64,000 bases of DNA from Sphingomonadaceae bacterium (GCA_050261575.1 JBLNDL010000014.1:10054-74053); one strand, 5' to 3'; positions 1 to 21,252 are shown, counted from the first letter of the stretch. Notes: generated by a model from the sequence alone, not told the origin. Made by a program: numbers and translations.

Positions 1-1
1 G

Positions 2-187
2 ATCGCCCAGCCAAACGCGGGGGTGCCCTCCGTGGAGGGCGGCAGGACGGTCTACAGCGTGGGGGCAGCGGAGATGGCCGACTTCGTGCAACAGTTCCTG
101 GATTCGGGGGTTCGGTTGATCGGGTCCTGCTGCGGCAGCTCGCCCGAGTACACCAGGGCCATCGTGCGGGTGGCAAAGGGGGGCTGA
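2..187 (+). CDS. homocysteine S-methyltransferase-domain protein, C-terminal fragment (5' end outside window)
   Basis: Frame-2 translation ends ...FLDSGVRLIGSCCGSSPEYTRAIVRVAKGG*, typical of the C-terminus of the Hcy S-methyltransferase/MetH N-domain; stop overlaps next start (TGATG). Confidence 0.5.
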   Translation: MAQPNAGVPSVEGGRTVYSVGAAEMADFVQQFLDSGVRLIGSCCGSSPEYTRAIVRVAKGG

Positions 188-1215
188 TGGAGAAAGAGCT
201 GGAGAGGTATTCTCGCCAGATCCTTTTCGCCGGCATCGGCGAGGAGGGCCAGCGGAAGCTGCGGGGCTCGAAGGTGTTGCTGGTGGGTTGCGGCGCCTTG
301 GGCAGCAACATCGCCAACACCATGGTGAGAGCGGGGGTGGGCAAGCTCACCATCGTGGACCGTGACTTCCTGGAGCTGAACAACCTGCAGAGGCAGGTGA
401 TGTTCGACGAGGAGGACGTGGCTGCCAGCCTGCCGAAGGCGGTCGCCGCAGCCAGGAAGCTGCGGAAGATCAACTCCCAGGTGGAGGTCGAGCCGCTGGT
501 GGCCGACGTCAATCCGGGGAACATCGAGGCGCTGGTGCGGGATGCGGACCTGGTGATGGATGGCACCGACAACTTCGAGACCCGCTACCTGATCAACGAC
601 GCTTGCGTGTCGCTGGGCAAACCGTGGGTCTACGGTGGCGTGCTCGCCAGCTACGGCGTCTCGATGACCATAGTGCCCCACGAGACCTCGTGCCTGCGCT
701 GCATCTTCGCGGAGAGTCCGCCGCCGGGTACCACTCCCACCTGCGACACCGCTGGGGTGCTCGCCAGCATCGCGGCGGTCGTGGCCAACATCCAGTGCGC
801 CGAGGCGCTCAAGCTGTTGACCGGCGCCAGGGATCGGATCAACAAGGGGATGATCTGGATCGACCTGTGGGAGAACAGCTTCGAGCGGCTGCTGGGCGGC
901 CAGATCGGCGAGAACTGCCCCTGCTGTGTGCAGGGCCGGTACGAGTTCCTGGAGGCCCGAGAGGGGACCCGCACGACCTCCATGTGCGGGCGGGACGCCA
1001 TCCAGGTGAGCGTGAGGGGCGGGGGCTCCGTCTCCTTCCCCGACCTGGCGGCGCGGCTTCAGGGGGCCGGCAAGGTGCAGTACAACGAGTACATGCTGCG
1101 ATTCCAGGTGGACGACTACGAGCTGATCGTCTTCCCGGATGCCCGAACCCTGGTGAAGGGGGTTACCGACGAGGCGATGGCCCGCACCCTGTTCGCCAGG
1201 TACGTCGGGGTGTAG
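187..1215 (+). CDS. ThiF/MoeB/HesA-family E1-like adenylyltransferase (MoeZ-like) with C-terminal CxxC...CxxC and extra domain
   Basis: 342 aa; RYSRQILF, Rossmann motif LLVGCGALGS, CLRC and CPCC zinc motifs; translationally coupled to upstream gene. Confidence 0.8.
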   Translation: MEKELERYSRQILFAGIGEEGQRKLRGSKVLLVGCGALGSNIANTMVRAGVGKLTIVDRDFLELNNLQRQVMFDEEDVAASLPKAVAAARKLRKINSQVEVEPLVADVNPGNIEALVRDADLVMDGTDNFETRYLINDACVSLGKPWVYGGVLASYGVSMTIVPHETSCLRCIFAESPPPGTTPTCDTAGVLASIAAVVANIQCAEALKLLTGARDRINKGMIWIDLWENSFERLLGGQIGENCPCCVQGRYEFLEAREGTRTTSMCGRDAIQVSVRGGGSVSFPDLAARLQGAGKVQYNEYMLRFQVDDYELIVFPDARTLVKGVTDEAMARTLFARYVGV

Positions 1216-1314
1216 GTCTGTCTCGCAGGGGCGGTGGCAAGCCGGAGCGCGGCGTCCTCGGGGGCGCGGCGACCTGACGGATATCCGGCCTGCCACCGCG
1301 GTTATCCCGTGGTG

Positions 1315-1531
1315 CTATCTGGTCTCCACCGGCTTCAACTGCCTCTGAACCTCTCCCCAGAGGTCCCCCTCGGACGTGTAGACCCGGTTGGGTACCCGTT
1401 CCAGGATCTCCACGACGCTCTGTGGAGCGCCCTGCTGCTTGGCCCAGTCGACCAGCGCCGGCAGCGATTCTGGCCAACCCACCTTCCTCAAGTAGGTGCG
1501 CAACTCATCCCTGGTAAGGGTCTGGGCCACA
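1315..1531 (-). CDS. small hypothetical protein (~71 aa)
   Basis: ORF with strong RBS (GGGAGGTGA) 5 nt before a GTG start; divergent from the rrf2 promoter; no recognisable family and no GG terminus. Confidence 0.3.
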
Positions 1532-1681
1532 GCGATCACCTCCCTTCAAAGGCGGTGGCCCACCCCGGCGAGGAGTGGGCCACCAAGCACCATCGCTACT
1601 GCGTGGCCGCCTGGCGCCCCCGAGGCCGGCCGATCGCAACTGGTATATAGCACCTGTAGGTTACCGATTCGCGATCAGGAT

Positions 1682-1720
1682 GTCAATGGATGTTGACAAC
1701 GGCCGCGGGCGCGCTATAAT
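1682..1720 (+). promoter_or_regulatory. near-consensus sigma70 promoter (TTGACA-16nt-TATAAT) overlapped by inverted repeat GTCAA-N6-TTGAC, upstream of the rrf2 gene
   Basis: TTGACA at 1693-1698 and TATAAT at 1715-1720; IR GTCAATGGATGTTGAC at 1682-1697; a second TTGAC direct copy at ~1734. Confidence 0.45.
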
Positions 1721-1779
1721 AGTCGGCGTGTTGTTGACTTAGGCTGTCGGAATTATCGAATATACTGGGGAGGGTCAAC

Positions 1780-2217
1780 GTGCGGATCTCGATGAAGAGC
1801 GACTACGCGTTGCGCGCCTTGATGGAGCTTGCCACGGTGCACGGCAATCGCCCCCTCCAGACCGGCGAAATCGCGGCGCGACGCTCCGTCCCGGAGTCCT
1901 ACCTGGAGCAGTTGCTCACCGCCTTGCGGAAGGCGGGCCTCGTAACCAGCGTTCGGGGGCCTCAAGGCGGGCACTCTCTGGCCGCGCCCCCCTCTCGGAT
2001 CACCGTGGGCGACGTGGTCAGGGCCCTGGAGGGGCCGGTGATAGTCATGGACTGTCTGGATTCGCCCGATGCCTGCCAGTCTCCGGATAGCTGTGTGCTG
2101 AAGGAGTTGTGGCTCGACGTGCGGAGGGCGGTAGAGGGGGCGATGGACAGGGTCACCCTCGAGGACCTGGCATCTCGCCAAGCGCTGATCGAGGGCGGCC
2201 TCATGTACCACATATGA
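1780..2217 (+). CDS. Rrf2-family transcriptional regulator (CymR/IscR-like)
   Basis: MRISMKSDYALRALMELA... winged-helix Rrf2 N-terminus; 145 aa; GTG start 5 nt after GGGGAGGG. Confidence 0.8.
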   Translation: MRISMKSDYALRALMELATVHGNRPLQTGEIAARRSVPESYLEQLLTALRKAGLVTSVRGPQGGHSLAAPPSRITVGDVVRALEGPVIVMDCLDSPDACQSPDSCVLKELWLDVRRAVEGAMDRVTLEDLASRQALIEGGLMYHI

Positions 2218-2311
2218 TCGGCGCGGCCGCGCCTGTCCTTCCAAGGCGGAGGGGGCGTGGCCTCCTGACGCGCAGCCCGGGTACCACGGAACGTGCCGGC
2301 GGCAGGGGGCA

Positions 2312-2338
2312 CGTGAGGCGAGCGAGCGCAGCCTCGCG
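2312..2338. repeat. intergenic hairpin repeat, family H (loop CGAGCGAGCGCAG), copy 1
   Basis: CGTGAGG-CGAGCGAGCGCAG-CCTCGCG; flanked by more small hairpins (2287-2365). Confidence 0.55.
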
Positions 2339-2474
2339 GTTCGGCCTGCCCCGCGGCAGGAACGAGACGCTGAACGTAGTGGCTTGGGATCTGCAATCGT
2401 CCTGGTGGGAATGCCGATGCCTGGAGCCGCATCCCGATGCGGCTTCGAGGGAGCGGGCGAAGGGGGAGATCAGG

Positions 2475-2921
2475 TTGCGGAAAGAACAGAGCGTGGTACG
2501 CCTGCCAGGTAGCTACCTGCGAGAGATCGTCGAGCACGCTCGGGATGGAAGTCCCAACGAGGTGTGCGGACTGATCGCAGGCCGCGGCGGGTATCCCGTG
2601 AAGCTGTACCGGACTACCAACGACGATCCCAACCCGCGGGTTCGGTACAACGTCGAGCCCCGGGAGCTTCTGGAAATCCACAGGGAGATCGAAGAGAACG
2701 GCTGGAGCCTGATGGCCATCTACCATTCCCATCCCGCGAGCGAGGCCTATCCATCGGAGACCGACGTTAGGCTCTCCTACTATCCAGATGCCGTCTATCT
2801 GATCTGCTCGTTAGCGGACGAGGATCCGGTGGTGAGGGCTTTCCGGATAGTCGACAGACAGGTGACGGAGCTGGCGTTGGAGGTCGAAGTGGAAACAGAG
2901 GGGCAGCGGCACGCCTCGTAG
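2475..2921 (+). CDS. JAMM/MPN+ metalloprotease (Mec+-like deubiquitinase-type)
   Basis: EVCGLIAG...HSHPASEAYPSETD matches JAMM motif E..H-x-H-x7-S-x2-D; TTG/GTG start after AAGGGGGAG; upstream part of track ORF 2109.. is not coding. Confidence 0.75.
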   Translation: MRKEQSVVRLPGSYLREIVEHARDGSPNEVCGLIAGRGGYPVKLYRTTNDDPNPRVRYNVEPRELLEIHREIEENGWSLMAIYHSHPASEAYPSETDVRLSYYPDAVYLICSLADEDPVVRAFRIVDRQVTELALEVEVETEGQRHAS

Positions 2922-2954
2922 TGGGGAGAGAGAAAGAAGAAGGAGAAGGAATCT

Positions 2955-3908
2955 ATGCGGATCGCCAACGATATCACGGAGTTGATTGGGAAGACGCCGC
3001 TGGTCAGGCTGAACAGGGTGACGGAGGGGTGCCACGCCACGGTCGTGGCGAAGATGGAGAGTTTCAATCCCCTCTCCAGCGTGAAGGACAGGATCGGCCT
3101 CAGCATGATCGACGAGGCCGAGAAGGCCGGGCTGATCCGGCCGGGCAAGACGGTGATCGTGGAGCCGACCAGCGGCAACACCGGCATCGCCCTCGCCTTC
3201 GTGTCGGCTGCTCGCGGCTACCGGTTGATCCTGACCATGCCCGAGACAATGAGCGTGGAGCGGCGTCAACTGCTGAGGGCCCTCGGTGCCGAACTGGTGC
3301 TCACGCCGGGGTCAGAGGGGATGAAGGGGGCGGTCCGCCGGGCCGAGGAGATAGCCGCGGAGATTCCCGATGGGTGGATCCCCCAGCAGTTCAAGAACCC
3401 CGCCAATCCGAAGATCCACCGCGAGACCACGGCGCTGGAGATCTGGAACGACACCGAGGGGAAGGTGGACATCCTGGTGGGTGGCGTCGGCACCGGAGGG
3501 ACGATCACCGGCATCGCCCAGGTGATCAAGGCCCGAAAGCCCGGGTTCAAGGTGGTGGCGGTGGAGCCGAAGGCCTCGCCGGTGCTATCCGGTGGTGCGC
3601 CGGGTGCCCACAAGATCCAGGGTATCGGGGCGGGCTTCGTGCCGGATGTCCTGGACCGGGAGTTGGTGGACGAGATCATCCAGGTGGAGAACGAGGACGC
3701 TTTCGAGACGGGGAGAAGGCTGGCTCGCCGGGAGGGCCTGCTGGTCGGCATCTCCTCCGGAGCTGCTGCATGGGCGGCTCTCCAGGTGGCGAGGAGACCG
3801 GAGAACGAGGGCAAGCTGATCGTCGTGATCCTTCCGGACACGGGCGAGCGCTACCTGAGCACCCCTCTCTTCCAGGAGCCACAGGGTAACGGGACGGCCA
3901 GCCTGTAG
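2955..3908 (+). CDS. cysM: PLP-dependent cysteine synthase (CysM/CysK family)
   Basis: 317 aa; SVKDRIG lysine motif, GNTG, glycine-rich TGGT loop; RBS GAAGGAGAAGGA. Confidence 0.85.
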
Positions 3909-3997
3909 GGCGTCGTTCTGCAAGTCCCATGCGGTAGGGCGGGGGTTAGTGCCCCGCCGCCCGGCTCATCGGACGCGCCTGGCGGTGGGGCACACGT

Positions 3998-4050
3998 GGC
4001 GCGAGCGTGGCCGCGAGGCGAGCGAGCACAGCCTCGCGGCCACGCGCGCC
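3998..4050. repeat. intergenic hairpin repeat, family H, copy 2 (extended ~20-bp stem)
   Basis: GGCGCGAGCGTGGCCGCGAGG-CGAGCGAGCACAG-CCTCGCGGCCACGCGCGCC. Confidence 0.55.
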
Positions 4051-4341
4051 CTACGGGCGGCGCATTCGCGGAACGGCGCAATCAGTCTGCACGCACCGCG
4101 CCGGAAGCGGCGCATACCGACGTGTGGGGCGAAGCATCGGCGCTGGGAGCCTATGGGCGCGGTGATCCCCACACGCCACGGCTTCGCCCTCGTGCCTCGG
4201 CCCGGACTCTCGGCCAGGAATCCGGAGCCGTACCCCGCCACCCCCGCTCCGGTTGTTCGCGCCCCACAACCGGCCGTATAATTAGGTTAACGTCGCATAA
4301 TACTGCGTAATCCTGGTCGTGGGGGTGGGCGATTGGGCCGG

Positions 4342-5442
4342 ATGGTGGTCGTGGCCATGAGCGGTGGGGTGGACAGCTCTGTGGCCGCCGCCCTGCTGAA
4401 CCAGCAGGGGTACGACGTCGTCGGGGTCACCCTCAACGTATGGCCCGAGAAGAGTCTGGTGGAGGCCGATACCCGCCACAACGCTTGCTGCTCCCTCGAT
4501 TCGGTGGAGGATGCCCGGCGCGTGGCGGATCTGCTGGGCATACCCCACTACACCCTCAACTTCCGGGACGTCTTCGACCGGACCGTGATCGAGGACTTCG
4601 CCCGGGAGTACCTGCGTGGCCGCACCCCCAATCCCTGCGTGCGGTGCAACCGCTTCGTCAAGTTCGACGCCCTGCTTGCGAAGTCCCGAGCGCTCGGCGC
4701 GGAGTACCTGGCGACCGGCCACTACGCTCGGGTTGCGCGCTCGGATGAGGGCCGCTACGTGCTGCGGAGGGCCGTCGACGCCTCCAAGGATCAGAGCTAC
4801 GCCCTCTACTCCCTTACCCAGGAGCAGCTTGCCCACACCCTCTTCCCCCTGGGAGAGATGGAGAAGACGGAGACGCGGCGGATTGCGGCCAGACTCGGCC
4901 TCATCACGGCGAGGAAGCCCGACAGCCAGGAGATCTGCTTCGTCCCGGACAACGACTACGCCCGCTTCCTGCGGCAGAGGATCCCCTCGGCTGCTCGGCC
5001 GGGTCCCATCCTCGATCAGCGGGGCGAAGTGCTGGGGACCCATCCCGGCATCGCCTTCTTCACGGTTGGCCAACGAAAGGGACTGGGGCTGGCCTCCAGC
5101 ACTCCGCTCTACGTGCTCGAGATAATCCCCGAGCGGAACGCCGTTGTGGTGGGGGAGCGCGACGCGCTATACTCGGCGGGCCTGATAGCCGGGGACGTCA
5201 ACTGGGTTTCGATGGAGGAGCCCTCGGGGCCGGTGCGGGTGGACGCGCGGATCCGCTACCGAGCCCCGGAGGTTCCGGCGATGGCCCGCGTGCAGGGGGA
5301 TGGAAGCCTGCTGGTGGAGTTCGACGAGCCGCAGCGCGCCGTCTCCCCCGGGCAGGCTGTGGTGCTGTACCAGGGCGATCGGGTGGTGGCCGGCGGGACG
5401 ATCGAACGAGCTGTCAGCGGCCAGCCATCGGCTGTCAACTAG
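4342..5442 (+). CDS. mnmA: tRNA-specific 2-thiouridylase MnmA
   Basis: VVVAMSGGVDSSVAA PP-loop, C..CN motif, MnmA-length protein; TATAAT-like elements ~60 nt upstream. Confidence 0.85.
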   Translation: MVVVAMSGGVDSSVAAALLNQQGYDVVGVTLNVWPEKSLVEADTRHNACCSLDSVEDARRVADLLGIPHYTLNFRDVFDRTVIEDFAREYLRGRTPNPCVRCNRFVKFDALLAKSRALGAEYLATGHYARVARSDEGRYVLRRAVDASKDQSYALYSLTQEQLAHTLFPLGEMEKTETRRIAARLGLITARKPDSQEICFVPDNDYARFLRQRIPSAARPGPILDQRGEVLGTHPGIAFFTVGQRKGLGLASSTPLYVLEIIPERNAVVVGERDALYSAGLIAGDVNWVSMEEPSGPVRVDARIRYRAPEVPAMARVQGDGSLLVEFDEPQRAVSPGQAVVLYQGDRVVAGGTIERAVSGQPSAVN

Positions 5443-5499
5443 TACACTGTCGGCCGACCGCTGTCCGCTATTGGCTGATAGCTATACGGGGGAGCCTGA

Positions 5500-6330
5500 A
5501 TGGACGAACTGCACCAGAAATACGAGAAGCTGAAGGATGCCCTGCGCTCCATGGAGAGCGTGGCGGTGGCCTACTCCGGTGGGGTGGACAGCACCTTCCT
5601 GCTGAAGGTCGCCGTCGACGTGCTGGGGCGGGATCGCGTGCTGGGCATCGTTGCCGTGTCCGAATCCTATCCCGCTCGGGAGTTGGAGGAGGCGAAGCGT
5701 CTGGCAGAGGAGATGGGAGCGCGCATCCTCCTGATCGAAACGGAGGAGCTCGCCAACCCCGAGTACGCCCGCAACCCGGTCGATCGCTGCTTCCACTGCA
5801 AGACCGAGCTGTTTACCAAGGTGTACCCTGTGGCCAAGGAGCAGGGCCTGCGAGAGGTGCTGTACGGGGTGAACGCCGACGATCTGGGGGACTTCCGCCC
5901 CGGGATCCAGGCTGCCAAGCGGATGGGGGCCAGGGGGCCTCTACAAGAGGTCGGCCTGACGAAGAACGAGATCCGGCTACTGTCCCGGGAGTTGGGGCTA
6001 CGGACCTGGGACAAGCCCGCCTACGCGTGCCTCTCCTCCAGGATCCCCTACGGGCAGAGGATCACCAAGGAGGCCCTGCACCAGGTGGACGAGGCCGAGA
6101 ACTTCCTCCACGACCTTGGTTTCCTTCAGGTGAGGGTGCGCCACCACGACAGGATCGCCCGGATCGAGCTGCCCAGGGAGCAGATGTCGAAGCTGCTGGC
6201 GGATGGGTCCGCCGAGTTGATAGTGGCCAAGCTGAAGGAACTGGGGTACCTCTACGTGACTCTGGACCTGCAGGGCTATCGGACGGGCAGCCTGAACGAG
6301 GCCATCGGGGCTGCCAAGGTCGGCGCGTAG
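5500..6330 (+). CDS. PP-loop ATP-pyrophosphatase, LarE-like sacrificial sulfur transferase family (TIGR00268)
   Basis: VAYSGGVDSTFLL PP-loop; DRCFHCK; AYACLSSRIPYG resembles the LarE Cys loop. Confidence 0.7.
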   Translation: MDELHQKYEKLKDALRSMESVAVAYSGGVDSTFLLKVAVDVLGRDRVLGIVAVSESYPARELEEAKRLAEEMGARILLIETEELANPEYARNPVDRCFHCKTELFTKVYPVAKEQGLREVLYGVNADDLGDFRPGIQAAKRMGARGPLQEVGLTKNEIRLLSRELGLRTWDKPAYACLSSRIPYGQRITKEALHQVDEAENFLHDLGFLQVRVRHHDRIARIELPREQMSKLLADGSAELIVAKLKELGYLYVTLDLQGYRTGSLNEAIGAAKVGA

Positions 6331-6403
6331 GACAGACAGCATCGGGCGCGGCGTTCCACTGGGCCGCCTTCCGCCGCGGGACTCGAATCGGACGGTTGAG
6401 GTG

Positions 6404-6440
6404 GGGCACGCGGGGCGAGCGAAAGCAGCCTCGCGTGCCC
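6404..6440. repeat. intergenic hairpin repeat, family H, copy 3
   Basis: GGGCACGCGGGG-CGAGCGAAAGCAG-CCTCGCGTGCCC. Confidence 0.5.
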
Positions 6441-6645
6441 GCTCGTGTCACCTGCCCAAGGCCACCGTGATCCCGGCACTGCGGGCCGAGTGGTTCTCCG
6501 TCGAGCAGCATCTCCGGATAGAGCACTCGTTGTCCGCAAGGAGGCCGACGCGGAATGGAGGCATCTGCTCGGGGCAGGTGAGCGGCTGCACGTGGGGCTC
6601 GATTGAGGGGCCACGCAGCACCGAGAATCGTTTGAGGTGATGACC

Positions 6646-7341
6646 ATGCCTAGGCTACCAGTTGACCTGGTCGCTTTCGACCTGATGGGAACGGTGATCG
6701 AGGATACAGGCGCAATGGACAGGGCGCTGAAGCGAACCTTGAGCCACCACAAGGTCCCCTTCAACCAGCAAGAGGTGGACGCCATGAGGGGTGCCGCCAA
6801 GGTGGAGGTCTTCCGGGCCGTGGCGGAGCGCGCACTGGGGGCCGGTGGGAGCCCCGAAGCCTGCCTTGAGCTGGCCGAGAAGATGTACCGCACCTTCAAG
6901 CAGGCGCTCAGGGATGCCTACGCGGAGACGCCCCCGGTGGAGATCCCGGGCGCTGCGGCGACCATGCGCTGGCTGAGGGAGCGAGGCGTCAAGGTCGCCG
7001 CAACCAGCGCTCTGGATACCGACCAGTTGGGGCCGATGCTGGATCGGCTGGGATGGGCCGAGGGCGTCTTCGACTGCAAGGTATCCACCTATGAAGTCCC
7101 TCGGGGACGCCCTGCACCGTACATGATATTCCAAGCGATGATGAGGACAGGCGTGGTGGACGTGCGGCGGGTCGCCGCCGTGGGCGATACCCCTTTGGAT
7201 CTGATGGCCGGCACCAATGCGGGGCTCCGGTGGGTGATAGGCGTCTTGAGTGGCGCTCACCGTCTGGAGAGCCTGGGCGTTGTCCCCCACACCCACATCC
7301 TGAACAGCGTCGCCGACCTGCCGAGGATCCTGGAGGGCTAG
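6646..7341 (+). CDS. HAD-IA family hydrolase (phosphonatase/phosphatase-like)
   Basis: VAFDLMGTVIED (DxDGT-like motif I), C-terminal GDTPLD motif; start chosen 8 nt after GAGGTGA. Confidence 0.6.
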   Translation: MPRLPVDLVAFDLMGTVIEDTGAMDRALKRTLSHHKVPFNQQEVDAMRGAAKVEVFRAVAERALGAGGSPEACLELAEKMYRTFKQALRDAYAETPPVEIPGAAATMRWLRERGVKVAATSALDTDQLGPMLDRLGWAEGVFDCKVSTYEVPRGRPAPYMIFQAMMRTGVVDVRRVAAVGDTPLDLMAGTNAGLRWVIGVLSGAHRLESLGVVPHTHILNSVADLPRILEG

Positions 7342-7421
7342 ACTCTGTCGGCCCTGGTCTCGCAGTCTTGCCTGGCACGATGCTACTATACACAGCAAGG
7401 TAGATGTCGCGGAGGAGAGGA

Positions 7422-8213
7422 ATGGGCGATCAGGACCTGGGCAACAAGCCCATGTTGAAGAAGTTCGACCTCACCGGAAGGGTGGCGCTGGTGACCGGGT
7501 CGAGCCGTGGGATTGGCGCCGCCATGGCGGTGGCGCTCGCGGAGGCGGGCGCCGACCTGGCCTTGGTGGCTCGGACGGAGGATGCCCTGCAGGGGGTGGC
7601 CGGCCGGATTCGAGAATTGGGCCGGCGGGCGCTGGTGGTCCCCACCGACGTGTCTCGGGTGCCGGCTCTCACCCAAATGGTGGATCGAGTGGTGGCCGAA
7701 TACGGTCGAGTCGACATCCTGGTAAACGCCGCCGGAGTGCAGTGCCGGAAGCCGATACTGGAGGTGACGGAGGAGGAGTGGGACTTCGTCAACGACGTCA
7801 ACCTGAAGGCGGTGTACTTCTGTTCCCAGATCGTTGCCCGGCACATGCTGAAGCAGGGGAAGGGGAAGATCATCAACATAGCTTCACTCACCTCCACCAT
7901 TGGGATCGCAAACGTCAGCATCTACACGGCCACCAAGGGCGGGGTGCTGGCGCTCACCAGGGTCATGTCAAGGGAGTGGGCGAAGCAGGGGATCAGGGTG
8001 AACGCCATCGCCCCTGGCTACTTCCACACCGAATTGACCAAGCGGTTGTACGACGATCCCGCCCTGCGTCAGTGGGTCGTCGATCGGACCCCCGTGGGTC
8101 GTTGGGGCGAGTTGGAGGACCTGATGGGCACCGCGGTGTTCCTGGCGTCCGACGCATCGGATTTCATCACAGGCGAGCTGATAAACGTGGATGGTGGGTG
8201 GTTGTCGGCGTAG
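7422..8213 (+). CDS. SDR-family oxidoreductase (gluconate/2-deoxygluconate dehydrogenase-like)
   Basis: TGSSRGIGAAMA, NAAG, YTATKGG catalytic Tyr-x3-Lys; RBS GGAGGAGAGGA. Confidence 0.8.
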   Translation: MGDQDLGNKPMLKKFDLTGRVALVTGSSRGIGAAMAVALAEAGADLALVARTEDALQGVAGRIRELGRRALVVPTDVSRVPALTQMVDRVVAEYGRVDILVNAAGVQCRKPILEVTEEEWDFVNDVNLKAVYFCSQIVARHMLKQGKGKIINIASLTSTIGIANVSIYTATKGGVLALTRVMSREWAKQGIRVNAIAPGYFHTELTKRLYDDPALRQWVVDRTPVGRWGELEDLMGTAVFLASDASDFITGELINVDGGWLSA

Positions 8214-8250
8214 TGGGTGGCTGCCGGCGCAGAGGAAAGGAGGCCGGGTG

Positions 8251-9624
8251 ATGGCAACCATCGAGGGCTTCGTCGCCGAGAACGAGAAGCGGTTTCTGGA
8301 GGAGCTTAAGGAGTTTCTCCGCATCCCCTCCATCAGTGCCCTCCCCGAGCACAGGGAGGACATGGTGCGCTGTGCCGAGTTCGGCGCCGAGGAACTCAGG
8401 CGCATCGGGATGCAGCGAGCGGAGGTGCTGCCCACCGGCGGTGCCCCCGTGATCTACGGCGAGTGGCTGGGCGCGCCCGGCCGGCCCACGGTCCTGGTGT
8501 ACGGCCACTACGACGTTCAGCCGGTGGACCCGGTGGATCAGTGGAGCAGCCCTCCCTTCGATCCTCAGGTGAGAGGGAACGAGCTGTACGCTCGTGGATC
8601 GGCCGACGACAAGGGACAGGTTTTCCTCCATTGGAAGGCCGTCGAGGCCCACATGCGGGTGAACGGCCGTCTGCCGGTGAACCTCAAGTTTCTCATCGAG
8701 GGGGAAGAGGAGATCGGCAGCGAGCACCTGGACGAGTTCCTGAAGGCCAACCGGGAGCTGCTGAGTGCCGACGCCGTGGTGGTGTCGGACACCGCGTGGT
8801 TCGACAGAGGGATTCCCTCCATCTGCTACGGGCTGCGCGGTCTCACCTACCTGCAGGTGAACCTGAAGGCCGCCGCGAGCGATCTCCACTCGGGCAGTTT
8901 CGGCGGGGCCATCGCCGACCCAATCCAGGTGCTGGCCGAGATCATCGCGGGCCTCAAGGACGACCGGGGACGGGTCGACGTGCCGGGCTTCTACGACAGG
9001 GTGCGTCCTCTTTCCTCGGATGAGCGCCGGCAGTTCGCGAGCCTGCCGTTCGACGAGGAGAAGTACCGGAGGGAGATTGGCGCCGTGGCGCTTTGGGGTG
9101 AGGAAGGCTACACCCCACTAGAGAGGGTGTGGGCCAGGCCCACCCTGGACGTCAACGGGATCTGGGGAGGCTTCACGGGAGAGGGAAGCAAGACGGTGTT
9201 GCCCGCCAGGGCGTCCGCCAAGCTGAGCTGCCGGCTGGTGCCCGACCAGGATCCTGAGGAGATCTTCCGCCTGGTGTCGGCGCGGATAAGGGAGCTGTGT
9301 CCACCCGTGGTGGAGATGGAGATCGTCCCGATGCACTCTGGGATGTGGGCCATCACCCCCCTGGAGCATCCAGCCGTTCAGGCTGCCGCGCGGGCCATGG
9401 AGCGGGCCTTCCACAGGAAGCCGGCCTTCATCAGATCCGGGGGCTCGATCCCGATCGTCGCGTCCTTCGCGGAGGTGCTGGGAGCACCCACTGTGCTGAT
9501 GGGCTTCGCCCTGCCGGACGATCACGCCCACGCGCCTGACGAGCGGCTCGACCTGGGTAACTTCTTTGGTGGTATCCGAGCCTGCGCCTTCCTGTGGGAT
9601 GAGTTGGGTGGGGAGGGCCGTTGA
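8251..9624 (+). CDS. M20-family metallopeptidase (dipeptidase/ArgE-DapE-like)
   Basis: YGHYDVQP, RGSADDKG, EGEEE metal-ligand motifs; RBS AGGAAAGGAGG. Confidence 0.75.
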   Translation: MATIEGFVAENEKRFLEELKEFLRIPSISALPEHREDMVRCAEFGAEELRRIGMQRAEVLPTGGAPVIYGEWLGAPGRPTVLVYGHYDVQPVDPVDQWSSPPFDPQVRGNELYARGSADDKGQVFLHWKAVEAHMRVNGRLPVNLKFLIEGEEEIGSEHLDEFLKANRELLSADAVVVSDTAWFDRGIPSICYGLRGLTYLQVNLKAAASDLHSGSFGGAIADPIQVLAEIIAGLKDDRGRVDVPGFYDRVRPLSSDERRQFASLPFDEEKYRREIGAVALWGEEGYTPLERVWARPTLDVNGIWGGFTGEGSKTVLPARASAKLSCRLVPDQDPEEIFRLVSARIRELCPPVVEMEIVPMHSGMWAITPLEHPAVQAAARAMERAFHRKPAFIRSGGSIPIVASFAEVLGAPTVLMGFALPDDHAHAPDERLDLGNFFGGIRACAFLWDELGGEGR

Positions 9625-10595
9625 GGCTGGGCACCGGCGGACAACTGGGGTACTACGGGCTGATCGCCCTGGCGGCGGCGATGTGGGGCACCCTCGGGGT
9701 GTTGACCAAGCATCTCTACGAATACGGCGTCAGCCCGTGGTCGCTCACCTTCCTGCGGACACTTCTGGGGTTCCTGGCCTTCGGCGGGGTGATCCTCTTC
9801 TTGGATCGATCCAGGTTCCGCGTTCGGCGGCGGGATCTGCCCTACCTCGCCCTCTTCGGGCTGATCAGTACCTCGATCTTCTACGCCCTCTACCTCTACA
9901 CGATCAGCCTTACCAGCGTGGCGGTGGCCGCCGTGCTGCTCTACACCGCGCCAGTGTTCGCTGCCATCATGGCCAGGTTCGCATTCGGCGAAGCGATCAC
10001 CCCGCCCAAGGTGGTTGCCTTGCTGCTCACCTTTGCTGGATGCGTGCTGGTGGCTGGGCTCGAATCGGGGGCGCCGGTGGTGACGCCGCTTGGGATCGGC
10101 ACGGGGCTAGGCTCCGCCCTGACCTACGCCAGTTTTGGGATCATGGGCAAGAAGGCTGGCCAGCGCAACTGCCACTGGACAATCAACTTCTATTCCATGG
10201 GATTTGCCACCCTCTTCCTGTTGCCGGTGCTGGCGCTGCCGGAGGTGTCCCTCTGGCCCTACCAGACCGAGGTCTGGCTGCTGCTGGCCGTGATGACGGC
10301 GGGGCCCACCCTGGCCTCCAGGGCGCTCTACGTGGGGGCGGTGAAGCACGTGGAGGCGAGCCGGGCGGCCATCGTCGCCACGGTGGAGCCGGTCGCCGCG
10401 GCGGCCTTTGCCTTCCTGCTGCTGGGGGAGCTACTCTCCTCTAGCCAGTTGATGGGAGGCTTCCTCGTGCTGGCGGGCTCTGTGCTCGCCCAGCAGCCGG
10501 GCCGGCCGGACGCGGAGCCACGCGACCAGGGAGGCGCGCCCGCGAAGCGGGATGTTCTGGCGTCTACCTCAGCCTCACTTCAGCAGGACAGGTAG
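9621..10595 (+). CDS. EamA/DMT-family transporter
   Basis: 10 predicted TM helices with duplicated EamA-like halves; TTG start overlapping upstream stop. Confidence 0.65.
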   Translation: MRLGTGGQLGYYGLIALAAAMWGTLGVLTKHLYEYGVSPWSLTFLRTLLGFLAFGGVILFLDRSRFRVRRRDLPYLALFGLISTSIFYALYLYTISLTSVAVAAVLLYTAPVFAAIMARFAFGEAITPPKVVALLLTFAGCVLVAGLESGAPVVTPLGIGTGLGSALTYASFGIMGKKAGQRNCHWTINFYSMGFATLFLLPVLALPEVSLWPYQTEVWLLLAVMTAGPTLASRALYVGAVKHVEASRAAIVATVEPVAAAAFAFLLLGELLSSSQLMGGFLVLAGSVLAQQPGRPDAEPRDQGGAPAKRDVLASTSASLQQDR

Positions 10596-13803: not shown

Positions 13804-13974
13804 CTGCGGATATGCCCCCCACCTCTGCTCCCCTAGACTGCGGACGGTAGCTTCCGCTCCGGCACCGTTTTCCATCCGAGGTCTCGCGCGCTGTCTCCCC
13901 GCCGGCTCTGGGGTGCCGATTCGTCCGCCATCAAACCGGGACAGGGGAGCGCGGAATGCTGTGGGAGGTAGTTG

Positions 13975-15159
13975 ATGGCAGACGATTCCAAGACACCCTT
14001 GGTGGACGAACTGGAAAAGGGAAGCTGGCCCAGTTTCGCCAAAGAAATGAAGCGGCGGGCCGAGAAGAACCTGGCCGCGAAGGACTTGGTAGGCCAGCTT
14101 GAACTCTCCTACCAGGAGAAACGGGTCCACTGGAAGCACGGCGGGGTCGTGGGCGTCAGGGGCTACGGGGGTGGGGTGATCGGTCGCTACTCCGACGTTC
14201 CCGAGAAGTTCCCCAACGCCGCCGAGTTCCACACGATGCGGGTGAACCAGCCCAGTGGCTGGTTCTACACCACCGAAAGCCTCCGCAAGCTGTGCGACGT
14301 TTGGGAGAAGTACGGGACGGGCCTCACCAACATGCACGGCTCCACAGGCGACATCATCCTCCTGGGCACGCAGACGGCCAACTTGCAGGAAGCCTTCAAC
14401 GCCCTGAGCGACGCCGGGTTCGACCTGGGTGGCTCCGGCTCCGACCTACGAACCCCGAGCGCCTGCGTGGGCCCCGCTCGATGCGAGTACGCCTGCATCG
14501 ACAGCCTGGGGATCTGCCACGACATCACTACGACCTACCAGAACGAGATTCACCGGCCGATGTGGCCCTACAAGTTCAAGATCAAGGTGGCGGGTTGCGC
14601 CAACGACTGCGTCGCATCCGTCGCCAGGTCCGATTTCGCCATCATCGGCACCTGGAAGGGCCCTTTGCGGATAGACCAGGCCGCGGTGAAGGAGTACATC
14701 GCCGCGGGCTTCGACGTGAAGGGCGAGGTGGTCGATATGTGCCCCACGAGGGCGCTGTGGCTGAACCAGGATGACAGCCTGGCTCTTGTCGCCGAGGAGT
14801 GCAAGCGCTGCATGCACTGTCTCAACAAGATGCCGAAGGCGATCAAGCCCGGCAGCGAGAAGGGCGCGACGATTATGGTCGGCGGGAAGGCCCCCATCGT
14901 CCGCGGCGCCTACCTCTCGTGGGTGGTCGTGCCATTCATGAAAATGGAGCCTCCCTACACGGAGTTGAAGGAGCTGCTGGAGAAGATCTGGGAGTGGTGG
15001 GACGAGCACGGGAAGTCCAGGGAGCGGATCGGGGAGTTGATCGACCGACTCGGGATGGGCCGCTTCCTCCGCGATCTGGGACTGGAGCCCTCGCCTGCGA
15101 TGGTGTTCCAGCCGAGGTCCAACCCCTACTACTTCTGGCAGCCCGAGGAGGTGAAGTGA
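13975..15159 (+). CDS. dsrA: dissimilatory sulfite reductase alpha subunit
   Basis: ~395 aa; siroheme/FeS Cys clusters ([16 protein letters not shown]), ferredoxin-like insert (CKRCMHCLN); RBS GGAGG. Confidence 0.85.
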
Positions 15160-15160
15160 G

Positions 15161-16225
15161 ATGGCAGAGGCTAGAACCGATTTCGGGCCTCCGTACTTCA
15201 AGGACATGTTGCCTCCGGTGATGGCGGAGAACTACGGCAAGTGGGTCTACCACGAGACGCTGCGCCCCGGGGTGTTGATGCACGTGGCCGAGAGCGGGGC
15301 GGCGGTCTACACGGTGAGGGTCGGCTCGCCCCGCCTGATGAGCATAGACACCATCCGAGAGCTGTGCGACGTGGCCGATCGGTACTGCGACGGCCACCTG
15401 CGCTTCACGAGCCGGCACAACGTCGAGTTTCTGCTGACCGACCCGGGCAAGATCGAGCCGCTGATGGCCGAAATGAAGAGCCGCGGCTGGCCGGTGGGCG
15501 GGACGGGAAACTCGATCAGCAACATCGTGCACACCCAGGGGTGGATCCACTGCCACAGTGCGGCCACCGACGCCTCCGCGCTGGTGAAGTCCATCATGGA
15601 CGAGGTCCAACCCTACTTCGAGAGCATGACGCTGCCCGCGAAGGTGCGGATCGCAGTGGCCTGCTGCCTCAATATGTGTGGCGCGGTGCACTGCTCCGAC
15701 ATCGCCCTTGTGGGGATCCATCGGAAGCCGCCAAAGGTGGACGCCGAGCGGCTGGCGAAGACCTGCGAGGTGCCGAACATCATCGCGGCCTGCCCGACTG
15801 CGGCGATCCGGCCGAACCCGAAGGAGAAGGGAGTCATCATCAACGAAGAGCGATGCATGTACTGCGGCAACTGCTTCACCGTGTGCCCGGCCATGCCCAT
15901 CGCCGACCCGGAGAACGACGGGGTGGCGGTCTTCGTGGGCGGCAAGGTGTCGAACGCGAGGAGCGCTCCGATGTTCTCCCGGCTGGCGATTCCATATCTG
16001 CCCAACAACCCGCCTCGCTGGCCCGAGACGGTGGCCGCGGTGAAGACCATCGTCGAGGTGTACGCGAAGCACGCCCGCAAGGGCGAGCGGGTCGGGGAGT
16101 GGATCGAGCGGGTCGGCTGGGAGCGGTTCTTCCAGTTGACGGGCATCCCGTTCACCGACAAGCACATCGACGACTTCCGCTTCGCTCCCACCACCTTCAG
16201 GACCTCGGCTGCGTTCAAGTGGTAA
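15161..16225 (+). CDS. dsrB: dissimilatory sulfite reductase beta subunit
   Basis: 354 aa; [20 protein letters not shown] siroheme-[4Fe-4S] motif, ferredoxin insert [12 protein letters not shown]; 1-nt gap after dsrA. Confidence 0.85.
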
Positions 16226-16283
16226 AGGAGTGGGATGGTGGGGGCGGGCTCCGCCCCCACCGATCCATCGAAGGGAGTTGGCC

Positions 16284-16475
16284 ATGAGTGAGGATCTGAA
16301 GGATCGGGTGATGGCCTATCTGGCCACGGTGGAGAAGGCGAAGAACAGGGACATCGCGAACGCCCTGGGGGCGCCGAAGCCCGAGGTGGACAAGGCGGTT
16401 GGCGACCTGGCCAAGGAGGACAAGATCGAGTACATCTACATCGGCACCTCCTACGTGAAGATCAAGGGGAAGTAG
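16284..16475 (+). CDS. dsrD: DsrD-like small winged-helix protein
   Basis: 63 aa MSEDLKDRVMAYLA...IEYIYIGTSYVKIKGK; position right after dsrB and size/pattern match DsrD; RBS GGAG. Confidence 0.55.
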   Translation: MSEDLKDRVMAYLATVEKAKNRDIANALGAPKPEVDKAVGDLAKEDKIEYIYIGTSYVKIKGK

Positions 16476-16487
16476 GGGCCCTCACCC

Positions 16488-16533
16488 CGCAACGCGAGCG
16501 AGTGCAGCGTTGCGCCTCTTGCAGAAGGAGAGG
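16488..16533. repeat. compound hairpin repeat: family H copy 4 plus CCTCTT..AGAGG hairpin
   Basis: CGCAACG-CGAGCGAGTGCAG-CGTTGCG, then CCTCTTGCAGAAGGAGAGG; preceded by GCCCTCACCCC. Confidence 0.55.
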
Positions 16534-16559
16534 GGGAACTGGGGACAGCCTCTCCCGTC

Positions 16560-17099
16560 GTGAGAGGGGGCTGGCAGGTAGCGGTGCTGACGGAGTTGAT
16601 CGAGGCGAACCGAGCCACGCTGCTGAAGCGATGGTTCGAATCGATATTGGAGGGTTACCCCTCGGACGTGGCCGGCCTTCTACGTCGGGAGGCTGACCCG
16701 TTCCTGAACCCCGTCGGAAGCACGATCTCCCGGGAGATCGGGACCGTGCTGGACGAGCTTCGCCGTGGCGGGGGCGGCGCCGGGCTCTCGGCCGCGCTGG
16801 ACGCCATCGTTCAGATCCGGGCGGTGCAGGAGATGGAGCCATCCCGGGCAGTCGGGTTCGTCTTCCTGCTCAAGAGGGTGGTGAGGGAGACGGTCGACGT
16901 CGAGGGCGCGGACCCGCGGCTGCAGGCTGAACTGCAGGAGTTCGAGTCCAGGGTGGATGGTGCGGCTCTTCTCGCCTTCGACCTGTACCTGAAGCATCGG
17001 GAGAGGATCCACGAGATCCGCACGAAGGAGGTTCGGGAGAGGTCCGAACGTCTGATGGAGCGGATGAGCCGGATCTACGGGATACGGGAGCCGGTGTAG
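16560..17099 (+). CDS. dsrT: DsrT-like protein (RsbRD_N-type domain)
   Basis: 179 aa between dsrD and dsrM; LKRWFESIL..ADPFLNPVG pattern resembles the RsbRD N-domain/DsrT; start uncertain (GTG 16560 or 16584). Confidence 0.45.
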   Translation: MRGGWQVAVLTELIEANRATLLKRWFESILEGYPSDVAGLLRREADPFLNPVGSTISREIGTVLDELRRGGGGAGLSAALDAIVQIRAVQEMEPSRAVGFVFLLKRVVRETVDVEGADPRLQAELQEFESRVDGAALLAFDLYLKHRERIHEIRTKEVRERSERLMERMSRIYGIREPV

Positions 17100-17312
17100 G
17101 GGCAGGCGGGCGTGTCTGCCCGGCCGAGGTGGAAGCGCGGCGCCGTGTGTGAGGGACGAGGGCGCACCCGTGTGTGCGCCCCTGCCAGGGTGACGCCGCG
17201 TCGGTAGGGGCTGACGCGCATCGGTCTGGGCGGGCCCGAAGAGCAGTCGACGGCGAGAACGCCGAGTCGGCGGGCATGGTGGCAGGGCTGCCGGCCCCCA
17301 CGTTACCCACTC

Positions 17313-17358
17313 CACAACGCGAGCGAGCGCAGCGTTGCGCCTCTCCCAGGGGGAGAGG
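17313..17358. repeat. compound hairpin repeat: family H copy 5 plus CCTCTCCC..GGGAGAGG hairpin
   Basis: CACAACG-CGAGCGAGCGCAG-CGTTGCG, then CCTCTCCCAGGGGGAGAGG; ~70 nt upstream of dsrM. Confidence 0.55.
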
Positions 17359-17425
17359 CAGAGTAGCGGAGAGATCCAGCGAGCGAGGCATTCGTTCCGA
17401 TGGCCGTGAAGCGAGGCAGTGCTAG

Positions 17426-18430
17426 ATGAGAATCCTCTGTCCCATGCTGGCGGTCCTGGCCATCGCCCTGATCGGGCTGGCGGGCGGGAGCGTGAGCGGC
17501 CTGCGAGCCGTCTTCGGCATCGCCATTCCGTATCTGGCCCTCGGTCTCTTCGTCGTGGGGTTGGTGTGGAGGGTGGTGGACTGGGCCAGATCGCCCGTCC
17601 CCTACCGCATACCCACCACCTGCGGGCAGCAGAGATCGCTGCCCTGGCTGAGAGCCAGTAACCTGGAGAGCCCGCACGACACCCTGGGCGTCGTGGGCCG
17701 TATGGCCCTGGAGGTGCTGGCGTTCCGGTCCCTGTTCCGGAATAGCTCCGTGGAGATAAGGGGCAAGCGGCTGCTATACCGCGACCGGAAGCTGCTGTGG
17801 GTGGCCGCGATCTTCTTCCACTGGTCCATGCTGGTGGTGATCCTCCGGCACTCGCGCTTCTTCCTGGAGCCGGTGCCTGTCTTCGTCTCCCTGCTCCAAT
17901 CGTTGGACGGGTTCTTCCAGATAGGCGAGCCGGTGCTGTTCGTCACGACGGTGGGCTTCCTGGCCGGGCTGAGCTACCTGCTGGTCCGCCGGGTGGTGCT
18001 GCCGCAGGTCCGCTACATCTCGCTGCCATCGGACTACTTCCCCCTCTTCCTCCTCATTGGCATCGGGCTCACCGGTGTCCTGATGCGCCACTTCTTCCGC
18101 ACCGACGTGGCGGCGGTGAAGGATCTGACCCTGGGGTTGGTGAGCCTTCAGCCCGTGGTTCCGGACGGGGTGTCGCCCCTCTTCTTCGCCCACCTGCTTC
18201 TGGTCAGCAGCCTCTTCGCCTACTTCCCCGCGAGCAAGCTGATGCACGCGGGTGGCATCTTCCTGAGCCCGACCAGAAACCTGGCGAACGACAGCCGAGC
18301 GCGCAGGCACGTGAACCCGTGGAACCATCCGGTGCCGGTCCACAGCTACTGGGAGTGGCAACAGGAGTTCAAGGACAAGCTGGAGGCGGCGGGGCTGCCG
18401 TTGGATCCCGAGCCGAGTCGAGAAGGTTGA
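17426..18430 (+). CDS. dsrM: DsrM, membrane di-heme b subunit (NarI/HdrE-like)
   Basis: 334 aa, ~6 TM helices, conserved His in TM helices; first gene of the dsrMKJOP block. Confidence 0.8.
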   Translation: MRILCPMLAVLAIALIGLAGGSVSGLRAVFGIAIPYLALGLFVVGLVWRVVDWARSPVPYRIPTTCGQQRSLPWLRASNLESPHDTLGVVGRMALEVLAFRSLFRNSSVEIRGKRLLYRDRKLLWVAAIFFHWSMLVVILRHSRFFLEPVPVFVSLLQSLDGFFQIGEPVLFVTTVGFLAGLSYLLVRRVVLPQVRYISLPSDYFPLFLLIGIGLTGVLMRHFFRTDVAAVKDLTLGLVSLQPVVPDGVSPLFFAHLLLVSSLFAYFPASKLMHAGGIFLSPTRNLANDSRARRHVNPWNHPVPVHSYWEWQQEFKDKLEAAGLPLDPEPSREG

Positions 18431-18431
18431 G

Positions 18432-21245: not shown

Positions 21246-21252
21246 GGTAGAG

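Follow-up and report, generated by a model that had tools for sequence, protein, structure and literature searches.

A sulfur amino-acid gene block with a CysO/MoaD-type carrier in a dsr-bearing Chloroflexota lineage

Genes and sites at the left end of the window

The window, meaning the whole 64,000 nucleotide stretch of DNA that was analysed, begins inside a gene block for sulfur amino-acid metabolism. The segment described here is a truncated part of that block, which is conserved in a Chloroflexota lineage that bears dsr; Chloroflexi bacterium UBA6077 has the closest genome. All features are on the plus strand unless the minus strand is indicated.

Positions 2..187 encode the last 61 codons of a homocysteine S-methyltransferase (PF02574, 2.3e-11). 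The complete gene is L001:3847-4716, and its 289 aa product (PF02574, 2.6e-73) is a stand-alone MetH-type homocysteine-binding Zn domain. The best solved relative is the homocysteine domain of Thermotoga maritima MetH (1Q7M, 190 bits), and the three Zn-ligand cysteines are kept. Relatives found elsewhere are nearly all YitJ-type fusions, and these do not have carrier or E1 genes as neighbours. The methyltransferase stop codon overlaps the start of the next gene (TGATG at 185-189).

This next gene (187..1215) encodes a 342 aa ThiF/MoeB-type E1-like adenylyltransferase (PF00899, 4.1e-77). Residues 1-250 make up the adenylation domain with its Zn tetra-Cys site, and residues ~251-342 make up a TBP-like domain that includes an invariant Cys267-Gly-Arg. 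The CxxC pairs C169/C172 and C244/C247, together with C186, are invariant in 81 relatives. An earlier reading of the window, made from the sequence only, had named this enzyme MoeZ. Its placement in the ThiF family and both CxxC pairs stand, but the MoeZ label does not. There is no rhodanese domain: Pfam gives only ThiF (residues 8-245), the C-terminal domain is instead folded like TBP, and the alignment to the MoeZ model is confined to model positions 18-246 of 392. The best NCBIfam model is the SAMP-activating E1 (UbaA), which at 206.9 bits does not reach its cutoff of 450. Identity among these E1s is at least 76 % inside the lineage and at most 65 % outside it. The wider family (46-65 % identity) spans Chloroflexota, Planctomycetota and Acidobacteriota, and its neighbours are mostly unrelated. 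In about 20 loci a JAMM gene lies directly upstream of the E1 gene with no carrier gene nearby, and in locus L052 the E1 gene is placed between MnmA and a cysteine desulfurase.

Downstream of the E1 gene is a small ORF on the minus strand (1315..1539). It belongs to the DUF2795 family (PF11387, 1.1e-11) and is not a beta-grasp carrier. Some relatives have the gene (L170) and others lack it (L007, L167), and it is probably not core to the block. It is followed by a consensus sigma-70 promoter (1693..1720), TTGACA and TATAAT separated by 16 nt, which is a 12/12 match and the sole one within positions 1-6500, where 0.6 would be expected. Between the promoter and the start of the regulator gene is a 32 bp block, TTGTTGAcTTaGgCtGTCGGaATTATCGAaTA (1731..1762); in an alignment of this spacer with that of L007, a UBA6077 relative, no other stretch is well conserved. 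There is one copy in the window and one in L001, and we infer that the block is a putative Rrf2 operator.

The regulator (1780..2217) belongs to the Rrf2 family (PF02082, 7.5e-42) and is CymR-like. CymR (NF047409) is the best specific model, at 118.7 bits and under its cutoff of 195, and the score with the Rrf2 superfamily model, 137.3, exceeds the cutoff of 73.3. The Rrf2 gene adjoins a CysK gene in seven other loci (L007, L008, L052, L167, L169, L170 and L172).

Next is a JAMM/MPN+ Zn metalloprotease of ~148 aa (about 2475..2921; PF14464, Prok-JAB, 1.7e-20), which starts at a TTG at 2475 preceded by GGGGGAG. The form predicted by gene finders is 235 aa and starts at 2214. Its extra 87 aa N-terminus is not conserved and its domain match spans residues 100-212 only; the orthologues are 135-158 aa and homology begins at ...RLPGS. 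The motif is intact, with the E in NEVCG followed by HSHPASEAYPSETD, which corresponds to HxHx7Sx2D, and these residues are invariant in the alignment. Among solved structures 2KKS is the best relative (84 bits), the best NCBIfam model is desampylase (95.5 bits, cutoff of 130 not reached), and JGI gives the name CysO-Cys hydrolase to some homologues. The genes that the sequence-only reading had listed do exist at the positions it gave. In several respects the sequence-only reading had described the segment as found here: an upstream gene ending in a homocysteine S-methyltransferase-type domain, a small minus-strand ORF that is no Gly-Gly carrier, an Rrf2 regulator with its own strong promoter between the E1 and JAMM genes, and an intact JAMM metal-binding motif.

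The last gene of this set (2955..3908) starts 34 nt past the JAMM stop codon and encodes a PLP enzyme (PALP, 1e-75). It had been taken for a CysM-type enzyme; the models assign it to CysK, the O-acetylserine sulfhydrylase also known as cysteine synthase A. The match to the CysK equivalog TIGR01139 spans all 298 model positions and, at 478.6 bits, is above the cutoff of 350.95, and the cysM model is failed (305.5 bits, cutoff 394). The best solved relative is Mycobacterium tuberculosis CysK1 (2Q3B/3ZEI, 471 bits), and M. tuberculosis CysM is not among the best 60 solved-structure matches. The orthologues in L007 and L167 are likewise CysK-type.

A separate neighbouring unit (4277..6330) consists of a -10 box (TATAAT, 4277-4282) that is conserved in three genomes, MnmA at 4333-5442 (454 bits with the NCBIfam MnmA model) and a tri-Cys PP-loop enzyme resembling LarE at 5500-6330 (LarE TIGR00268, 354 bits). 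It is syntenic with the sulfur block in relatives.

The carrier gene is upstream of the window edge

The sequence-only reading had described these genes as a module without a recognisable carrier gene, and had named a canonical CysO/ThiS-like gene immediately upstream of position 1 as the finding that would speak against this. Inside the window, the description holds. There is no ThiS/MoaD-like ORF within 1216-2955, as had been stated, and no plausible carrier ORF (55-140 aa, with GG at or near the C-terminus) across the whole 64 kb. However, none is visible because the window is cut. Contigs that are 99.97-100 % identical to window positions 1-3190 reach 4.5 kb further upstream, and on these a CysO/MoaD-type gene is located two genes 5' of the E1 gene, at approximately -1038 to -727 in window coordinates, with only the methyltransferase gene in between.

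The product is 103 aa long, matches PF02597 (ThiS/MoaD, E value 2.9e-11) and ends in ...PVAGG followed by a tail of 13 residues, EAGVEFQVLSAGC. M. tuberculosis CysO (3DWG_C, 55 bits), to which it aligns as far as the GG, and Amycolatopsis orientalis 4N6E_B are among the nearest solved structures. The best NCBIfam model is SAMP1, at 58.8 bits and short of its cutoff of 60. A carrier is present in every examined relative of the lineage. The GG is invariant among the orthologues and the tails past it vary (TE, LEF, IIGTGG, ERSQ, V, none, 12 aa or 13 aa), which fits a propeptide that is cut off by a protease. The question of the missing carrier is thus decided against the sequence-only reading on the terms which that reading had set. 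The cluster is not carrier-less, and is a complete, lineage-specific variant of a known protein-thiocarboxylate sulfur amino-acid cluster.

Organization and conservation

The block is made up of two units. Unit 1, which begins upstream of the window, is NIL - carrier - methyltransferase - E1. Its first gene encodes a NIL domain, which is degenerate in the source organism (11 bits); the domain also flanks the carrier of relatives, and has otherwise been tied to methionine/homocysteine metabolism (PMC5764234). In L167 the NIL gene overlaps the carrier gene, and this overlap and that of the methyltransferase and E1 genes suggest translational coupling. In unit 2, Rrf2 - JAMM - CysK come after the sigma-70 promoter and the putative operator. 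The full order, NIL-carrier-MT-E1-Rrf2-JAMM-CysK-MnmA-LarE, is repeated in L007, L167/L168 and L170, and is partial in L169 and L172. As the block is conserved within one lineage only, this synteny is weak evidence of function. No MetY (O-acetylhomoserine sulfhydrylase, PF01053), CysE or DUF39 genes were found in the 64 kb window or the 4.5 kb upstream of it.

Two further observations concern the pairing of JAMM with CysK. In L054, a bona fide carrier-E1 fusion and JAMM locus, the neighbouring PLP enzyme is CysM-type, and in L008 and L052 a CysK gene is beside an Rrf2 gene with no JAMM gene. The adjacency of JAMM and CysK here may reflect co-regulation instead of a shared reaction.

Comparison with known systems

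The block resembles the CysO/Mec+/CysM/MoeZ system of M. tuberculosis in its MoaD/ThiS carrier, whose nearest solved relatives include CysO, and in having a JAMM protease with an intact motif, an adjoining fold-type II PLP cysteine synthase and an E1-like activator. However, a strict analogy fails on two defining features, as the PLP enzyme is CysK-type rather than the O-phosphoserine-specific CysM, and the E1 has a TBP-like C-terminal domain and lacks the rhodanese of MoeZ. The 13 aa carrier tail past the GG, the division into two units, and the presence of an Rrf2 regulator and a homocysteine methyltransferase also differ.

The HcyS/HcyD/HcyF/MetY system of Wolinella succinogenes, which makes homocysteine and methionine by a thiocarboxylate-dependent route (Krishnamoorthy & Begley 2011, cited in PMC6225789 and PMC5764234), likewise has an E1 without rhodanese and a methionine link. 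HcyS reportedly has one or more extra residues after the GG and requires a JAMM protease, and the tail of the carrier here may be removed in a similar way. Unlike that system, the cluster here includes CysK and no O-acetylhomoserine sulfhydrylase, and a MetH-type homocysteine domain that stands alone, together with the NIL protein, provides its link to methionine.

Clustered Rrf2, CysK and MnmA genes, with CymR as the best specific model, recall the CymR-CysK pair and the cymR-yrvO-trmU(mnmA) operon of Bacillus and Staphylococcus, where CymR complexes with CysK (PMC2869319). In contrast, the Rrf2 score here is under the CymR cutoff and JAMM takes the place of the cysteine desulfurase.

The component set is identical to that of neighbourhood classes 4c-4e of Iyer, Burroughs & Aravind 2006 (PMC1779556). 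Class 4c includes Chloroflexus, but its E1s are rhodanese fusions, whereas class 4e E1s, like the one here, lack rhodanese and their operons include SirA and sulfate-assimilation genes. The descriptions of classes 4c and 4e do not mention a homocysteine methyltransferase, a NIL protein or an Rrf2 regulator. This kind of neighbourhood has been known since 2006, and what is new here is modest: the partner is a CysK, a MetH-type homocysteine domain stands alone, and a NIL protein is included.

Function

The best explanation, which we consider probable from the gene content, is a protein-thiocarboxylate sulfur-carrier module for the synthesis of cysteine and/or homocysteine/methionine. The sequence-only reading had proposed such a module, and the proposal is strengthened by the CysO-like carrier with GG and a removable tail, even though the missing carrier and the MoeZ and CysM labels were not upheld. 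Neighbourhoods that combine ThiS/MoaD, E1 and JAB with cysteine synthase or with sulfur-assimilation genes form an established class, in which E1s without rhodanese also occur (PMC1779556). For M. tuberculosis and W. succinogenes, pathways to Cys and Met that depend on a thiocarboxylate have been established (PMC6225789).

From the observed genes and motifs we infer the following steps. JAMM would trim the variable carrier tail to expose Gly-Gly, and the carrier C-terminus would then be adenylated by the E1. The adenylate could be converted to a thiocarboxylate by sulfide, of which a sulfite reducer has plenty, or by a persulfide, possibly one borne by the E1 on Cys186 or Cys267, both of which are invariant. 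The thiocarboxylate would attack the aminoacrylate on a PLP enzyme, which would be CysK in the case of cysteine and/or, in the case of homocysteine, a MetY from another part of the genome; an S-to-N acyl shift would follow. JAMM would hydrolyse the resulting carrier-amino acid amide, and the methyltransferase would convert homocysteine to methionine. By analogy with CymR-CysK, Rrf2 might repress the unit of JAMM and CysK in response to cysteine/O-acetylserine status. Abundant free sulfide in a sulfite reducer counts against the need for a carrier, and a canonical CysK, in place of a CysM that uses CysO-COSH, counts against a carrier-fed cysteine route. A combined route in dsr-bearing Chloroflexota, in which CysK accepts a CysO-like thiocarboxylate, the carrier is linked to methionine via the MetH-type domain and NIL, and the TBP-like E1 domain with its invariant Cys replaces the rhodanese function, is a speculative and rather unlikely version of this module.

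The strongest alternative, possible though clearly less likely than the module as stated, is that carrier, E1 and JAMM serve Hcy/Met only, as in the HcyS system. The O-acetylhomoserine sulfhydrylase would be elsewhere, the methyltransferase would complete methionine, and CysK would be an ordinary sulfide-using O-acetylserine sulfhydrylase sharing a CymR-like regulon. A MetH-type homocysteine domain flanking the carrier, as does NIL in relatives, the post-GG tail, the E1 without rhodanese, the canonical CysK and the Rrf2-CysK pairs without JAMM in other genomes all agree with this, and such E1s accompany sulfur-assimilation and O-acetylhomoserine sulfhydrylase operons (type 4e; PMC1779556). However, MetY is absent from the 68 kb, JAMM is transcribed with CysK rather than with the carrier, the NIL gene is degenerate in the source organism, and among solved structures the carrier is nearest to CysO-type proteins.

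It is rather unlikely that the E1 and JAMM are a housekeeping pair for several ThiS/MoaD carriers (Moco, thiamin, tRNA thiolation, possibly the LarE-like enzyme), with CysK clustering reflecting a sulfur regulon. The widespread E1 family with its mostly unrelated neighbours, the ~20 JAMM-E1 loci, the L052 arrangement and the syntenic MnmA and LarE-like genes would be explained, but translation of the E1 here appears to be coupled to that of a dedicated operon for a CysO-like carrier, MnmA is served by a separate promoter and uses persulfide rather than thiocarboxylate (PMC6225789), and the window has no Moco or thiamin genes.

Ubiquitin-like conjugation (SAMP/TtuB-like), with the E1 attaching the carrier to targets and JAMM deconjugating them, is very unlikely. 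SAMP1, desampylase and the SAMP-activating E1 are the best NCBIfam models for the three proteins, but all scores are under the curated cutoffs (58.8 < 60, 95.5 < 130 and 206.9 < 450), and the neighbours are sulfur amino-acid enzymes with no proteasome or Cdc48-type genes among them; such a role could coexist with sulfur transfer. A carrier-less system, or one with a non-canonical carrier, can be dismissed almost entirely, as it accounts for the window itself but not for the CysO/MoaD-type gene upstream on window-identical contigs and in all lineage relatives examined.

Gene content and location of the carrier gene

The window opens within the gene for a homocysteine S-methyltransferase (MT; PF02574), of which the 3′ end, the last 61 codons, lies at 2-187. 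Its stop codon overlaps the start codon of the gene for a 342 aa ThiF-family E1 (187-1215) in a shared TGATG at 185-189. Further along are genes for a DUF2795 protein (1315-1539, minus strand), an Rrf2 regulator (1780-2217), a JAMM protease (about 2475-2921) and a PLP-dependent cysteine synthase (2955-3908). All of the genes named in a sequence-only reading of this DNA were found at the coordinates that it gave, and the JAMM catalytic motif E...HSHPASEAYPSETD is intact, as it had claimed. That reading considered the locus to be a cysteine/homocysteine sulfur-carrier module without a recognisable gene for the carrier. No ThiS/MoaD-like ORF of 55-140 aa with GG at or near the C-terminus was found in any of the six frames of the whole 64 kb and, inside the window, the negative statement is therefore right.

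However, the carrier is neither missing nor non-canonical, as a CysO/MoaD-type gene sits just upstream of the window, a finding that the reading itself had named as contrary to its claim. An exact-sequence look-up with the E1 protein led to six assembly contigs that are 99.97-100 % identical to window positions 1-3190, some of which reach 4.5 kb further upstream. In one of these (L001), the order toward the E1 gene is a heat-shock cluster (MerR, DnaJ, HSP20), a spacer of ~0.5 kb, the carrier, the MT and the E1. The carrier is a ThiS-family protein of 103 aa (L001:3491-3802, about -1038 to -727 in window coordinates) with a TTG start after AGGAAGG, and the complete MT of 289 aa (L001:3847-4716) lies between it and the E1. 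The carrier matches PF02597 (2.9e-11), and its best solved relatives are a Thermus thermophilus MoaD-related protein (1V8C), Mycobacterium tuberculosis CysO (3DWG_C) and Amycolatopsis orientalis ThiS/MoaD (4N6E_B). The alignment with CysO (55 bits) reaches the terminal GG. The carrier ends ...ELTILLPVAGG then EAGVEFQVLSAGC. In its orthologues the GG is invariant, and what follows it varies from one to another and is unconserved (TE, LEF, IIGTGG, ERSQ, V, none, or 12 aa in Chloroflexi bacterium UBA6077), the pattern to be expected if the tail is removed by a JAMM protease. The apparent carrier anomaly is a product of the window cut, and the cluster is complete.

Other candidates for the carrier were excluded. 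A 74 aa minus-strand ORF is the DUF2795 protein. Gene finders begin the JAMM gene at 2214 (product P0012, 235 aa), giving it an 87 aa N-terminal extension, but a carrier hidden in the 258 bp Rrf2-JAMM spacer, or as an N-terminal part of the JAMM protein, was ruled out, as this extension has no Pfam or other domain match and no counterpart in the orthologues of 135-158 aa. The spacer (2214-2474) is GC-rich and about 100 nt shorter in UBA6077; positions 2218-2474 are not conserved in that genome (L007) and fold no better than shuffled sequences (z -0.68). The MT ends ...KGG, which might suggest a cryptic carrier, but the UBA6077 orthologue ends ...VVKGT and the resemblance is therefore a coincidence. 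An RNA element in the spacers, either a leader or a riboswitch, was also ruled out, as no Rfam family matched window positions 1-9000 or contigs L001 and L005 at E<=1.

Identity of the E1 and of the PLP enzyme

The E1 is not MoeZ, as it had been labelled. Pfam detects ThiF alone (residues 8-245), and only the adenylation half of the MoeZ model aligns. The AlphaFold model (pLDDT 88.9) superposes on Escherichia coli ThiF over the first ~250 residues (TM 0.94). The fold of the C-terminal domain is TBP-like, and a fused beta-grasp or rhodanese domain was ruled out. The Cys-Gly-Arg motif (Cys267) of this domain showed no variation among 81 relatives or among 42; that Cys267 carries a persulfide is speculation. 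E1s of this 340 aa class, in which the C-terminal domain is TBP-like and bears a Cys, are widespread and without a solved structure.

The PLP enzyme had been called CysM-type. By model scores it is a CysK and not a CysM, passing TIGR01139 (CysK; 478.6 bits against a cutoff of 351) and failing the cysM model (305.5 against 394). It is most like M. tuberculosis CysK1 (471 bits), and M. tuberculosis CysM is absent among its 60 best solved relatives. The orthologues in L007 and in L167, a related Chloroflexota locus, gave the same outcome. The adjoining PLP enzyme is CysM-type at L054, a locus from Clostridia that encodes a JAMM protease and a carrier fused to an E1.

Conservation of the block

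The closest genome in the species-representative collection is Chloroflexi bacterium UBA6077 (E1 83 % identical), UBA6077 being a class within Chloroflexota (PMC10284905). The order NIL-carrier-MT-E1-(DUF2795)-Rrf2-JAMM-PALP-MnmA-LarE-like was seen in this genome and in the related Chloroflexota loci L167/L168 (carrier 63 % identical) and L170 (JAMM 71 % identical), and in part, to the limit of those contigs, in L169 and L172. At L171 (JAMM 57 % identical), the gene context differs. The E1s of the lineage form a tight group (at least 76 % identity, all 342 aa), and the next relatives are at most 65 % identical. As evidence that genes are linked in function, synteny confined to a single lineage is weak.

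The MT (METHYLTRANSFERASE) most resembles the barrel of Thermotoga maritima MetH that binds homocysteine (1Q7M, 190 bits) and retains the three cysteines that serve as Zn ligands; its similarity to BHMT or SMM-type enzymes is far lower. Its 80 nearest metagenomic relatives are at most 47 % identical and almost all are ~620 aa YitJ-type fusions (methyltransferase plus MTHFR). They have no carrier, E1 or JAMM gene nearby, ruling out an MT-carrier linkage kept outside the lineage, and the stand-alone MT between carrier and E1 is therefore lineage-specific.

In the relatives, a NIL protein of 79-100 aa (PF09383, 1.9e-16) is encoded directly before the carrier and overlapping it, and is well conserved in L007, L167 and L170. 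Among the proteins with NIL domains are ones that methanogens and Desulfovibrio require to make homocysteine (PMC5764234). The ORF in this position in the window organism (L001:3171-3494, some 1.0-1.4 kb before the window begins) scores 11 bits against a NIL HMM made from the orthologues and has no Pfam match, and an intact NIL gene was rejected. As the ORF is barely recognisable, NIL is probably dispensable or decaying in this organism.

Regulation and transcription units

A perfect promoter (TTGACA-16-TATAAT, 1693-1720), the only such site within 1-6500, precedes the Rrf2 gene. Between it and the Rrf2 start is a 32 bp block (1731-1762, core GTCGGAATTATCGA) that is the sole conserved stretch in the alignment with UBA6077, and we infer that it is a putative Rrf2 operator. 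The block occurs once, with no second copy ahead of the carrier operon. For the Rrf2 protein, the best match is the CymR model, with a score under its cutoff; CymR works in complex with CysK (PMC2869319). The MnmA gene has its own TATAAT (4277-4282), conserved in three genomes, and therefore begins a separate unit.

Proposed pathway and alternatives

The analysis established gene content, motifs, order and conservation, and from these we infer the chemistry. On balance we favour a thiocarboxylate carrier system serving sulfur amino-acid synthesis. The tail of the carrier would be trimmed by the JAMM protease, the carrier would be adenylated by the E1, and a thiocarboxylate would be formed from sulfide or a persulfide. 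This would be captured by a PLP enzyme (CysK here and/or MetY elsewhere), the amino acid would be released by the JAMM protease after an acyl shift, and the MT would make methionine from homocysteine. The system may be HcyS-like with CysK merely co-regulated, or CysK itself may be the acceptor; CysK adjoins Rrf2 also in the JAMM-less loci L008 and L052. A lesser rival to the thiocarboxylate system is that the E1 and JAMM act as a general-purpose pair for several carriers. Outside the lineage, neighbours of this E1 family are mostly unrelated, and the sole recurrent one is a JAMM gene directly upstream (about 20 Chloroflexota loci). SAMP-like protein conjugation by the carrier, E1 and JAMM is also a lesser rival, but the SAMP1, desampylase and UbaA models each scored under cutoff.

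The locus differs from the M. tuberculosis system in lacking two of its defining features, CysM and MoeZ, and from the Wolinella system in lacking one, the in-cluster MetY. Neighbourhoods of ThiS/MoaD, E1, JAB and cysteine synthase were catalogued in 2006, Chloroflexus included, with a subtype of rhodanese-less E1s beside sulfur-assimilation genes (PMC1779556), and thiocarboxylate-dependent routes to cysteine and methionine are established (PMC6225789). A limited literature search found no description of the combination of CysK, a MetH-type homocysteine domain, NIL and Rrf2. The scientific weight of this variant would be modest. If CysK-type enzymes accept protein thiocarboxylates, an oxidation-resistant cysteine route would be predicted in more organisms. 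The linkage of carrier, homocysteine methyltransferase and NIL could be a sign that anaerobic Chloroflexota feed methionine synthesis in a way not yet described, and gaps remain in their amino-acid pathways (PMC5764234).

Neighbouring genes and related architectures

Beside MnmA is a gene for a LarE-family PP-loop enzyme (5500-6330; TIGR00268, 354 bits) with three cysteines, in DRCFHCK and YACLSSR, as in the [4Fe-4S]-type LarE of T. maritima; LarA, LarB and LarC were not found in the window. After the block come genes for an M20 peptidase and an EamA-family transporter (8191-10595), a pair that recurs downstream in L172. A complete dissimilatory sulfite reductase (dsr) island (13972-22425) runs from dsrA (569 bits) and dsrB (518 bits) through a gene with an RsbRD_N domain to dsrM, dsrK, dsrJ, dsrO and dsrP, with the dsr genes above NCBIfam cutoffs throughout. 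Chloroflexota bearing dsrAB have been reported before (PMC10591310). At 23007-25507 on the minus strand is a second DsrMK-like pair, in which a 541 aa Fer4/CCG protein resembles HdrD/DsrK and its 301 aa partner is a membrane cytochrome b like NarI.

Among the other loci, the Clostridia locus encodes a 533 aa fusion (L054:306-1907, minus strand) with a CysO-like carrier N-terminal to the E1, and a carrier domain ending GG forms the C-terminus of a 475 aa protein without NCBIfam match in Planctomycetales (L043:5084-6511, plus strand). In Anaerolineae (L063, L073 and L074, about 12.1-13.7 kb), a JAMM domain is found at the C-terminus of proteins of ~515 aa.
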